64,000 nt of DNA from Escherichia coli (GTDB lineage Bacteria; Pseudomonadota; Gammaproteobacteria; Enterobacterales; Enterobacteriaceae): assembly GCF_024502345.1 (NCBI RefSeq), contig NZ_JALDNN010000001.1; one strand, written 5' to 3'. Positions 1 to 55,545 of the stretch are shown here, piece after piece. Below the pieces are notes generated by a model. That model made no database searches. It was not told the origin of the DNA and saw only the letters and a program-made list of their open reading frames with translations. The translations under genes were made by a program, and so were the position numbers. Position 1 is the first letter of the stretch. Each line of letters opens with the position of its first letter.

Positions 1-381
1 GTTAATGACGAAGGCTGGTACGCTACGCGCGATCGCGGTGAGATGCATAATGGCAAGCTGACCATTGTCGGACGTTTAGACAATCTATTCTTCAGTGGCG
101 GAGAGGGTATTCAGCCGGAAGAAGTCGAGCGCGTAATTGCTGCACATCCTGCGGTTTTGCAGGTGTTTATCGTCCCCGTTGCCGACAAGGAGTTTGGTCA
201 TCGACCGGTGGCGGTGATGGAGTATGACCACGAGAGCGTTGATCTTAGTGAATGGGTGAAAGATAAGCTGGCCCGTTTTCAGCAACCGGTACGTTGGCTG
301 ACTTTGCCGCCGGAGCTGAAAAACGGCGGTATTAAAATTTCACGTCAGGCGCTAAAAGAGTGGGTGCAACGTCAGCAATAA
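1..381 (+). CDS. menE: o-succinylbenzoate-CoA ligase, C-terminal part (5' end lies outside the window)
   Basis: Frame 1 is open from base 1 to the stop at 379-381; translation VNDEGWYATRDRGEMHNGKLTIVGRLDNLFFSGGEGIQPEEVERVI... is a typical AMP-binding ligase C-terminus; position next to pmrD/arn. Confidence 0.85.
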   Translation, partial: VNDEGWYATRDRGEMHNGKLTIVGRLDNLFFSGGEGIQPEEVERVIAAHPAVLQVFIVPVADKEFGHRPVAVMEYDHESVDLSEWVKDKLARFQQPVRWLTLPPELKNGGIKISRQALKEWVQRQQ

Positions 382-490
382 TTAACCCTCCGTTTCACTT
401 CTCAGTTCTGCCATTCCATTGCCGTTGATAAAGAGTTTATCTGTTAATCTGTAAATTGAGATGAAAACTCTTAGCAAACAGGATAATACA

Positions 491-757
491 ATGGAATGGC
501 TGGTCAAAAAATCGTGCTGCAATAAACAAGATAACAGACATGTACTTATGCTCTGCGATGCTGGCGGCGCGATAAAAATGATCGCCGAAGTGAAGAGTGA
601 CTTCGCCGTGAAAGTGGGGGATTTACTCTCACCTTTGCAGAATGCGCTTTACTGTATTAATCGTGAAAAGCTGCATACGGTGAAAGTCCTCTCCGCAAGC
701 TGTTATAGCCCCGATGAGTGGGAACGGCAGTGTAAAGTGGCAGGGAAAACTCAGTAA
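491..757 (+). CDS. pmrD: PmrD, connector protein linking PhoPQ to PmrAB signalling (88 aa)
   Basis: ATG at 491; translation [35 protein letters not shown]... recognised as PmrD; the six-frame ORF 461..757 is a 10-codon upstream extension. Confidence 0.9.
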
Positions 758-1137
758 CGTTGTTTTGTCGTGGGCAGGAAAATCAGCATCAACCCGCTCA
801 TAATACAGGCTACTCCCAGTAGTGCTTTCAGCGAAAAAGTCCCTTCCCAGCCGGGAAGTACCATTGAAGCAATCCATACCAGCACATAACTCATACTGAG
901 CAAGGCATAGGCTTTGCTTAGCGCAAGTTTATGTAGTGTTTTATACCAACAAAAAACGGAAAGCAGATAACCCAGCAGCCCGAGTAACAGTATCCGGGCA
1001 TCCAGCCCAAAAGCTAACAGAGCCGCGATAAAATCCCATAAGTGCGTCATCGGCGGCAGATGACTCGCCGCAAAACCCAGGCTTAATTGCGCAACTGAGG
1101 CAATAATGACGCTGAATAATCCCCACATCAGGCCCAT
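751..1137 (-). CDS. arnF: undecaprenyl-phosphate-Ara4N flippase subunit ArnF (128 aa)
   Basis: Internal start [22 protein letters not shown]... within ORF 751..1419; ATG overlaps the arnE stop (TAATG); small multi-TM protein; 3' end overlaps pmrD 3' end by 7 bp on the opposite strand. Confidence 0.85.
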
Positions 1138-1472
1138 TACACCGTACTCCCGAGGATCACAATGCCACCAATAATGAACGCCACCCCACACCAGTGACGC
1201 GGCGATACCGGTTCGTGCCACAGTTTTACTGCAGCCAGCGTCACCCAGACAAAATTCAGACTTAACATCGGGTAGGCAATGCCTACCGGTACGTTCTGCA
1301 AGACCAGCAGCCAGAGCACCATGGCAAGACCAAGACAAGCCAGCGCCAGTCCCAGCCACAGCACGATATGTTTGCGCCGTTTGTTTATCGCCACAAAGCA
1401 GGTTGCCTGCTTCTGACACAACTGCCCGGCAACGCTAAGCAAGCTGGCAAAGACTAATGTTAGCCAGATCAT
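1137..1472 (-). CDS. arnE: undecaprenyl-phosphate-Ara4N flippase subunit ArnE (111 aa)
   Basis: ORF 1137..1472; hydrophobic SMR-like protein [22 protein letters not shown]...; start overlaps the arnT stop. Confidence 0.9.
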
Positions 1473-3121
1473 TTGGGACGATACTGAATCAGCACCAGAC
1501 GCTCCTGACGATCGATGGCATCTGCGGGCGGAATGGCGAGACTGTTGATATCTTCATCGCGGTCAACCGAAAGCACGAGTGTAATAATCCCCTCCTGACG
1601 ATGTTGATTAAGCCAGTTTGCGAACTCATCATCGCTGACAAATCTCCCTTTCGCATCCGGATAATTAAGGCCGTATTTCAACTCACCTGTCTGGCGATAC
1701 ATGATGATGTCATCGCGTTGCAGGCTCCATGCCAGACCTGCGGCAACACCGACGCTATCAGTAAGAATATAGCGGCTTGGCTGAAGTGATTCTTGTGTCA
1801 TCTCGACAAAAAATTGCGGATGTTTTCCTTCCATGACTCTGTCAGGAATTGAAAATCCTACCAGCAACGCCAGCCCCAGCGGGCAAAGCGCGGCAAAAGA
1901 CCAGGTCTTTTCGACGTTTGTTAAGGTGTACCAGCCGAAAAATGCCCATAGCGAAAAAATCGACCAGGCACAAAAGACTTTATAGCTCTCGAAGGTTTGC
2001 CACACCGGCGTGTTCATTGGTCCCCAGGGGGAGACCACAAATGTGGCAATAATGCCAGTGACGCCAAAAGCGATGTTAATCCAGCCATTAATCCGCAGCG
2101 CCAGAGGATTATTTTTTGCTGCCAGCAAAGCGTAATGTGCCAACAGCATTGCCAGAGGTGCAAAGCAAGAAAGAATATAGGTGGGCAATTTGCCTTTAGC
2201 GACGGAGAAAAACAGCAGCGGCATTATCGTCCAGCTCAACAAATAGACGGTTGCGGAATGCTTGCGGTTTTTCCAGCCTGTGTACAGTGCACCGGGGAGT
2301 AATCCCAGCCACGGCAGGCTACCGGCAATGATGACCGGCACGTAGTACCAGAACGGGGCTCTGTGTTGGGCATCATCCAGTGCAAAGCGTTGAATATGCT
2401 CAACCCAGAAAAAATAGTGCCAGAAGTCAGGCTCCCGCTGCGCTATCGCCAGTCCCCAGGGGAGAACCGTCAGTACGCAACTGATAACCGCCAGCCAGCC
2501 GTAAATAAAGAGATCTTTCCAGCGTTTTTGCGTCGCTACCCATGGCAGCACGCTTAATACCGGCACGGCAAGGGCGAGAAAACCTTTGGTCATCACCCCC
2601 ATGCCGCAGGTGATTCCCAGCAGTAAAAATCCTGCGCTTTTGCCTTTCCACGTCTGTGCCTGCATTGCCAGCCAGAAGCTGCACATTCCCGCCACCAGCC
2701 AGAAGGCAATAAACGGATCGAGCACGGCATAAGTGCCGATGGCATAGACAATAAACAATGAGAGGTAAATCACTGTGGCGAGTAGAGCCAGACGTTTATC
2801 GCGCCATAAGCGCAGAGTAAACCAGGTCACCAGCGCGGCAGTTAACAGGGTCACAAAGATAACGCCTGCCCGCACACCAAAGTTATTCGCGCCAAATAGC
2901 CATTGCCCAATGCTGTTAATCCAGTATCCGGCAATGGGTTTTTCGAAATAACGTAGCCCTAACAGATGGGGCACAATCCAGTCGCCGGATGCCAGCATTT
3001 CTCGACTGATTTCCGCATAACGCGTTTCATCGGGTTGCCATAGCAGACGCGTGCTGATCGGTAACAGGTAATAGCAGGCAATAAACGCGAAGAGGCCGAT
3101 AAGGTAACGTACCGATTTCAT
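1469..3121 (-). CDS. arnT: undecaprenyl-phosphate 4-amino-4-deoxy-L-arabinose:lipid A arabinosyltransferase ArnT (550 aa)
   Basis: ORF 550 aa, polytopic membrane glycosyltransferase ([42 protein letters not shown]...); operon context. Confidence 0.95.
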
Positions 3122-4011
3122 CAGCGACTACCCGCAATTTGTTGGCAACCCAGCCAGCCTTCACGTCCGGCAATATTTCCGCGAACAACTTGTCCGAGCG
3201 GCAACGTCTCTGATAACAGTTCGCTTAAAGGGCAAAATGTCACGCCTTCCTGAGCTGCGCGTTTGAGGAGATCCACAAAATTATGCTGATAAGCGCAGCC
3301 TTCAACTTCTGCATGAATGGTATAAACCGGCGTGCCTTTATCTCGCAGGATGCGGTTGAGTAACCAACCATTAAAATCTTCTGCTTTCACATCCCGACCA
3401 ATCACTTCGTCCCAGGTGGGTAATGTCACCGGAATTTGCGCAGTGCCAGGGTTTCCTGATTCGAGCAGTGGACGGAACGGCATGGCCCCACGGCAATCGC
3501 TGTTGTAGCGCAAATGGAACGCTTCTTTTGCTTCGATCACCTGCTGGTCGGCACGCCAGCCCGCAGCGGCAGAACAGGTTACCGGTTGACCGATAATCTC
3601 TTCCAGGGTGCGAAGGCCGCGTGCAATATCGTCGATCATTGTTTGCCGATCCCAGTTACCGCTATGGGCTTGCCAGGCATGGTGATCCCAGGCGTGCAGG
3701 CCGACTTCGTGATGTTTAGCCGCTTCACGAATGATATCGGCATTGGCATGACCAATCTCTTTACCTGGCCAGGCCGTACCTGCCAGTAAAATATCCCAGC
3801 CATAAAGCGATGCCGCGTTTGAGCGCAGCATCTTCCACAAAAACTGTGGCTTCACCAGTCGCCAGAGATGGCGGCCCATATTGTCCGGGCCGACGCTGAA
3901 AAAAATGCTGGCCTGAATATTATGCTTACTCAAGATTTCCAGCAGACGCGGCACGCCTTCACGGGTGCCACGAAAGGTATCGACATCAATGCGTAAGCCT
4001 ACTTTGGTCAT
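3121..4011 (-). CDS. arnD: 4-deoxy-4-formamido-L-arabinose-phosphoundecaprenol deformylase ArnD (296 aa)
   Basis: ORF 296 aa, polysaccharide deacetylase-like sequence; start overlaps the arnA stop. Confidence 0.95.
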
Positions 4012-9475: not shown

Positions 9476-9753
9476 AGGGGTATTCCTTATAAATAAAAAG
9501 AAACCATGAGAATACGGTAACTCAGAAATATGTGAAAGTGACAGTAATCTCTTTTGCGATGATAACTGCACTTATTATTATTTTTGTGTGTATCGGTAAG
9601 CTGTGTTTATTTTTTCGGCGTTTAATTATTTAAGAAGTATTTAGTTACAATAAGTGACTAGATCCCTTTTTTCGCTCATTGAATCCTCTGCGCCAGGCAG
9701 TACAATCCCGCAGCTTTGGGAATTTTGATTAATTGCTTGTGGGAAAGGGGATA

Positions 9754-55234: not shown

Positions 55235-55545
55235 TCGTGTTTATGACCTGTTAAAACTTCGCGAAGTGATAGGGCAGTATAAAGGGTACAGTGTGAAATT
55301 CCAGACTCTTACCTGATTGATGATTCTCTATTCTCCCGTGATATTTATCATCCTGCATTGGGGGAAATAGATGTACAAGCGCCATTTTGCTGTACAAATA
55401 ACCTACGAAAAGCCCAACGAAATTAATTGCAAATAAACGAAGATTGCTGGAAATTATGCTGATGTTAATTATTTGTGAAATAGTTAACAAGCGTTATAGT
55501 TTTTCTGTGGTAGCACAGAATAATGAAAAGTGTGTAAAGAAGGGT

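Follow-up and report, generated by a model that had tools for sequence, protein, structure and literature searches.

Register of the PhoP box upstream of pmrD and the convergent 3' ends of pmrD and arnF in Escherichia coli

The window analyzed herein, a stretch of 64,000 nucleotides from an Escherichia coli contig (NZ_JALDNN010000001.1), opens inside menE and continues with pmrD and, on the opposite strand, the last genes of the arn operon, which is the ordinary arrangement of the menE–pmrD–arnF junction in E. coli. The features discussed are the following, in window coordinates:

1-381, plus strand: 3' end of menE (o-succinylbenzoate-CoA ligase), stop codon TAA at 379-381; from the list of open reading frames and the RefSeq annotation of a 99.8%-identical strain
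381-397, plus strand: PmrA-box-like remnant ATTAAC-cctcc-GTTTCA, with TTAA in the first hexamer only; putative assignment from its aligned position
422-440, plus strand: PhoP box CCGTTGAT-AAA-GAGTTTAT, core CGTTGA-N5-AGTTTA at 423-439 in direct orientation; from the published site, matrix score and homology
452-457, plus strand: predicted -10 hexamer TAAATT, 12 nt after the core of the PhoP box; from the Salmonella geometry and the occurrence of TAnnnT in 15 loci
463-464, plus strand: predicted pmrD transcription start, for a leader of some 27-28 nt, from homology to the start that S1 mapping gave in Salmonella; counted from the annotated ATG, the equivalent K-12 positions are 2373566-2373565
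481-484, plus strand: Shine-Dalgarno-like AGGA, 6 nt before the pmrD ATG; read from the sequence
491-757, plus strand: pmrD coding sequence, 88 aa, Pfam PF11183, stop codon TAA at 755-757
751-757: overlap of the coding 3' ends, TCAGTAA, 7 bp, holding the pmrD stop TAA (plus strand) and the arnF stop TGA (minus strand)
751-1137, minus strand: arnF coding sequence, 128 aa, last gene of the arnBCADTEF operon, stop codon TGA being the complement of TCA at 751-753
1137-1472, minus strand: arnE, from the list of open reading frames
1469-3121, minus strand: arnT, from the list of open reading frames

The identification of pmrD and arnF as convergent neighbors, made in an earlier note on this DNA, is borne out by the open reading frames, the RefSeq annotation and the PF11183 assignment, and the gene ends in RefSeq (both in the 99.8%-identical strain and in K-12 MG1655) are the same as in the window. 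A query of 601 bases over the region had matches in 5,419 of 5,426 complete E. coli genomes, all of them chromosomal and annotated as menE, pmrD and arnF, the best at 99.8% identity. Lesions in arn genes beside an intact pmrD were observed in some lineages (L003 2764-3093; L004 2754-2819; L010 2875-3351). In Escherichia sp. MOD1-EC7003, arnF is cut to aa 39-128, and what matches next is a fragment weakly similar to arnT (40% identity over aa 205-270). Only the last 22 arnF codons are left in E. coli SCPM-O-B-8794, with a pmrD extended to 90 aa, and arnF and arnE are matched only in part in S. enterica subsp. arizonae.

The coding sequence of pmrD ends in ACT CAG TAA and that of arnF, on the opposite strand, in CGT TAC TGA, and the 7-bp overlap described in the earlier note was recovered exactly from the sequence and the open reading frames, as well as in RefSeq. 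The overlap also measures 7 bp in K-12 MG1655 (arnF at 2372892-2373278, pmrD at 2373272-2373538) and is annotated in two divergent E. coli haplotypes. Across the orthologous loci, retrieved through alignment of PmrD, both its length and its sequence vary between lineages: 7 bp are shared in E. coli and E. albertii, 6 bp (TCATGA) in S. enterica and its subspecies diarizonae and arizonae (the latter read by eye), a gap of 3-9 nt separates the stop codons in Citrobacter amalonaticus and relatives, and pmrD does not adjoin arnF in Intestinirhabdus. The C-terminal tails differ as well: that of PmrD is KVAGKTQ in E. coli and RKPS in Salmonella, and that of ArnF is TTKQRY and PARS, respectively. Since the two genes abut without space for a terminator in Escherichia, Salmonella and Citrobacter, this abutment must be old in the lineage; its exact length is not conserved. 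On these comparisons, compaction by drift looks like a better fit to the variable overlap and tails than a selected overlap, and the overlap would then result from the drift of two poorly conserved C-terminal tails instead of being a dedicated regulatory device. It is possible that selection and not drift caused the near-constant tail-to-tail abutment in three genera.

A consensus scan found no terminator-like site after either stop codon (plus strand to 1600, minus strand to base 1). The folds of 700-900 on the plus strand and 800-560 on the minus strand were no better than those of shuffled sequences (z of 0.68 and -0.31, respectively), and folding found no conserved structure at the 3' ends of pmrD and arnF. 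Likewise, neither the scan nor the folds revealed a bidirectional intrinsic terminator, i.e., a G+C-rich hairpin with an A tract and a U tract between the stops. Two candidates were rejected: a hairpin followed by a T run at 858-843 (minus strand), the only one nearby that could serve as an arn terminator, lies inside arnF about 90 nt before the stop and was treated as a coding coincidence, no clean hairpin being seen by eye at the equivalent place in Salmonella; and a weak hairpin followed by UUUUU at about 611-575 (minus strand), antisense to pmrD, has its U run 6 nt off the stem and went unflagged by the scan. Stretches of 78 nt with a C/G ratio of 1.5-1.8 occur downstream of both stops and, judged by base composition alone, are compatible with Rho loading on untranslated RNA, of which they are no proof.

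Because each mRNA has to include its own stop codon, the pmrD and arnF transcripts overlap by geometry, and the proposal that each must enter the other gene agrees with RNA-seq: arnF–pmrD is among 165 convergent excludons of MG1655, with transcript overlap in at least 50% of 58 transcriptomes (ExcludonFinder, Nucleic Acids Res. 2025, PMC12288877). The same work remarks that arnF and pmrD act in one pathway. By the 7-bp coding overlap and this RNA-seq listing, the pair consists of convergent neighbors with overlapping transcripts, one trait of a convergent excludon. As the stop codons leave no space between the genes and no intrinsic terminator follows them, each mRNA would run antisense into the opposite gene: the mRNA of pmrD, driven by PhoP, into arnF, and that of the arn operon, driven by PmrA, into pmrD. 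The most likely ends of the two are diffuse, either Rho-dependent or by run-off. Both pmrD and arnF are poorly expressed in standard media. The supplements of two transcript-end surveys (Yan et al. 2018; Adams et al. 2021) hold no entries of mapped ends for pmrD, arnF or menE.

The PmrA box is described as XTTAAY-N5-XTTAAY (PMC10570014), and pmrD is repressed by PmrA in Salmonella (literature including PMC3335776). Upstream of the PhoP box, the window carries at 381-397 a repeat whose second hexamer is without TAA; its aligned counterparts are ATTAAT-N5-GTTAAT in Salmonella and ATTAAG-N5-ATTAAT in Citrobacter, and K-12 keeps one TTAA like the window. We infer the assignment of the Salmonella PmrA box from its reported distance of about 38 bp. 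As a single TTAA hexamer is left at 381-397, repression of pmrD by PmrA may be weak or absent in the window/K-12 haplotype.

The pmrD control region of E. coli occurs in two haplotypes at a ratio of about 4:1, the window/K-12 type having matches in 4,289 complete genomes and a second type, which resembles E. albertii, in 1,122 (regions 360-490 of the window, 1658-1788 of L002 and 901-1031 of L018). The minority haplotype has a consensus proximal PhoP half-site, GGTTTA, which raises the score of the PhoP site to 16.0 bits versus 13.1 in the window type, and a better PmrA-box-like repeat, ATTAAG-aaatc-ATTAGT; the 7-bp overlap is kept in both. These haplotypes may merit attention, since published accounts are at odds over a link between the PhoP and PmrA systems through PmrD in E. 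coli.

With these elements in hand, the overlap could be envisaged as a working excludon, in which the 7.5-kb arn operon, when turned on by PmrA, is read through pmrD antisense and lowers pmrD by polymerase collision or RNase III cleavage of the duplex, a second negative feedback beside or instead of repression through the PmrA box. We consider this unlikely, although several observations are in its favor: the overlap is forced by geometry and seen in RNA-seq, neither gene is shielded by a terminator, the genes still abut or overlap in Escherichia, Salmonella and Citrobacter, both genes belong to one circuit, and Salmonella PmrA represses pmrD whereas the homologue of its box in the window keeps one TTAA half-site. 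However, 165 pairs in MG1655 are listed on the same RNA-seq grounds, so that the listing is no evidence of regulation; neither the length nor the sequence of the overlap is conserved and no conserved structure was found; the same overlap occurs in haplotypes with a better or a worse PmrA-box remnant, hence with no sign of compensation; and we found no published functional test of the arnF–pmrD pair. It is likewise doubtful that arn read-through into antisense pmrD exerts, at the level of transcription, a negative feedback on the connector between PhoP and PmrA, one that would matter most in the majority haplotype, in which the second half of the PmrA box is lost. If true, it could contribute to the strain- or condition-dependent PmrD activity reported for E. 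coli and would be one more loop in the textbook PhoP–PmrD–PmrA–arn circuit, which governs resistance to polymyxin and colistin in enteric bacteria; its present support is the geometry of the locus. The coupled termination and antisense effects raised in the earlier note are speculative.

Upstream of pmrD, the site CCGTTGATAAAGAGTTTAT at 422-440 reached 13.1 bits with a position weight matrix that drew on 48 PhoP sites from Fig. S2 of Harari et al. (2010) and excluded both pmrD entries. It ranks sixth among the 127,964 positions of the window, both strands counted, and is the best match within 382-490 by 10 bits. Its core, CGTTGATAAAGAGTTTA at 423-439 (CGTTGA-TAAAG-AGTTTA), was returned by a scan for KGTTTA-N5-KGTTTA with 3 of 12 positions mismatched. 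Because matches with three or fewer mismatches are frequent (198 in the window versus 125 expected), the support for 422-440 comes from the matrix score, the position and homology, and not from the weak consensus match. The PhoP site of E. coli pmrD was listed as CCGTTGAT---GAGTTTAT (Harari et al. 2010, Fig. S2), which corresponds to 422-429 plus 433-440 of the window, and the box has the same letters in K-12.

Homology points to the same place. When the 130 nt upstream of pmrD were searched with the matrix in each of 15 loci (five genera, with Escherichia, Citrobacter, Salmonella and Intestinirhabdus among them), the best match was always the homologous site, which scored 6.5-16.2 bits, with TAnnnT invariably 12 nt and the ATG 30-33 nt downstream; the pentamer GTTTA at 435-439 is invariant in 12 of 12 aligned sequences. 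The Salmonella pmrD box, CTATTGCCGTTTTGTTTAT, is single, in direct orientation and 12 nt from the -10 hexamer TAACGT (Zwir et al. 2012, PMC3335776), with the +1 position five nt after that hexamer and a leader of 27 nt (tables 1-2 of PMC3335776), the footprint and S1 mapping being credited to Kato et al. (2003) by the same authors. This 19-mer is present in S. enterica (L014 2433-2451), and the stretch between the Salmonella box and the ATG aligns without gaps to Citrobacter and, by way of it, to E. coli, which makes the site at 422-440 the positional homologue of a footprinted PhoP site. A 6-bp insertion in E. coli relative to Salmonella, considered on account of the resemblance of CATTGCCGTT to TATTGCCGTTT, is ruled out by the ungapped alignment through Citrobacter.

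Several traits of architecture I promoters (Zwir et al. 2012) are found here: the direct repeat (T/G)GTTTA-N5-(T/G)GTTTA is recognizable at 423-439 and not at 435-451, and the box ends 12 nt before the -10 hexamer, over the -35 position, given that the core ends at 439 and TAAATT starts at 452. Phospho-PhoP bound to CGTTGA-N5-AGTTTA would thus take the place of the -35 element, and sigma-70 RNA polymerase would be recruited to TAAATT by class II activation, as expected from the promoter family. Transcription would start near 463-464, giving a pmrD mRNA with a short leader of about 27 nt. An in-frame ATG at 461-463 (GTG in K-12) stands 30 nt before the annotated start of pmrD and would extend the protein to 98 aa; it is placed at the predicted start of transcription (about 463-464) or upstream of it, which would exclude it, in agreement with the annotated PmrD of 88 aa. 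A preprint (10.1101/2021.07.26.453917) describes a 'start-site array' at the 5' end of pmrD, as well as the silencing of the gene by an insertion of 1 bp in Shigella flexneri. On the minus strand, a sigma-70-like match at 507-480 (9/12) was attributed to chance, one being seen versus 1.4 expected, and an Rfam scan of 1-3200 returned one sub-threshold chance match only.

That this promoter depends on PhoP, as the earlier note supposed, is correct and has long been known: expression of E. coli pmrD was stated to require PhoP and low Mg2+ by Mitrophanov et al. (2008, PMC2565834), citing Winfield and Groisman (2004). It is quite improbable that read-through from the men operon, and not the PhoP promoter, provides a substantial part of pmrD transcription. 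The idea draws on the co-directional placement of menE and pmrD, 109 nt apart, and on the consensus scan, which found no terminator-like site between them (382-490). Against it stand this dependence on PhoP and low Mg2+ in the literature (PMC2565834) and the strong conservation of the PhoP box/-10 module, and read-through would add a basal level rather than replace the promoter.

Where the box lies within the PhoP-dependent promoter is the point at which our reading departs from the previous one, which had proposed GTTTAT-CTGTT-AATCTG. The string GTTTATCTGTTAATCTG is indeed present at 435-451, but as a PhoP match in that register it scores at background: it and its neighbors range from -3.3 to -13.9 bits, as high as which 2-18% of the window positions score, and the motif scan suggested as a check returned 423-439, with 435-451 absent among the matches of three or fewer mismatches. 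The suggested comparison with the Salmonella pmrD promoter did reveal a homologous box, but in the upstream register of 422-440. The earlier register is shifted downstream by 12 bases, one half-site plus one base. Read from the alignment and matrix, GTTTA at 435-439 is the promoter-proximal half-site, the distal half-site is CGTTGA at 423-428, and AATCTG at 446-451 falls within the 12 nt that separate the box from the -10 hexamer. That AATCTG could instead be a second half-site contacted by PhoP, in a box at 435-451, is scarcely credible, since, despite GTTTA being a genuine half-site, AATCTG matches TGTTTA poorly, the whole has more than three consensus mismatches and the low scores given above, such a box would end 0-1 nt from the -10 hexamer versus the 12 nt typical of architecture I, and both the published E. 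coli site and its Salmonella homologue are in the upstream register. Everything that the earlier note had pointed at is already described (the gene overlap in every annotation, the overlap of transcripts in the excludon catalogue of 2025, and the PhoP dependence and box since 2004-2010), and the contribution of the present analysis is the corrected register of the PhoP box at pmrD. The coordinates 422-440, not 435-451, are the ones needed by those who design promoter mutants or reporters.

Other PhoP-like sites were observed in the window. The box-like CGGTTTTGCAGGTGTTTAT at 152-170 (plus strand), inside menE, has one consensus mismatch and 13.4 bits, and coincides with a terminator-like hairpin and T run at 148-163. 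Two adjacent matrix matches of 13.3 and 15.6 bits lie at 9607-9644 (plus strand) in the nudI–yfaZ intergenic region, about 110-150 nt upstream of yfaZ, and the top match of the window, GTGTTTATGACCTGTTAAA at 55237-55255 (plus strand, 17.2 bits), adjoins the start codon of rcsD in the rcsD–ompC intergenic region.

Taken together, we hold it very probable that pmrD is served by a PhoP class II promoter with its box at 423-439, that the pmrD and arnF transcripts overlap without intrinsic terminators, and that the overlap arose by drift.

Bidirectional intrinsic terminators between convergent genes are known in E. coli from full-length RNA profiling. The pmrD–arnF junction is similar to those in being a pair of convergent gene ends where both transcripts need to stop, but it differs in that the genes leave no space between them and that a hairpin bordered by A and U tracts is absent. 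Among the convergent excludons of MG1655, the pair is itself listed by its overlapping transcripts (PMC12288877); an excludon in the full sense would also have its two genes expressed to the exclusion of each other, by interference or by cleavage with RNase III. In Klebsiella pneumoniae, pmrD is activated by PhoP through a semi-conserved PhoP box and has no functional PmrA box (Mitrophanov et al. 2008, PMC2565834), a lack that, by its description, resembles the degenerate remnant of the window. Another close counterpart is the pmrD locus of Salmonella enterica, which has the same synteny of menE, pmrD and convergent arnF, and the same promoter plan of one direct PhoP box, 12 nt to a weak TAnnnT and a leader of about 27 nt. 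The two differ in the half-sites (CGTTGA/AGTTTA in E. coli versus TATTGC/TGTTTA in Salmonella), in the -10 hexamer (TAAATT versus TAACGT), in the PmrA-box-like repeat (ATTAAC-N5-GTTTCA in the window versus ATTAAT-N5-GTTAAT) and in the coding overlap, which is of 7 bp in E. coli and 6 bp in Salmonella.
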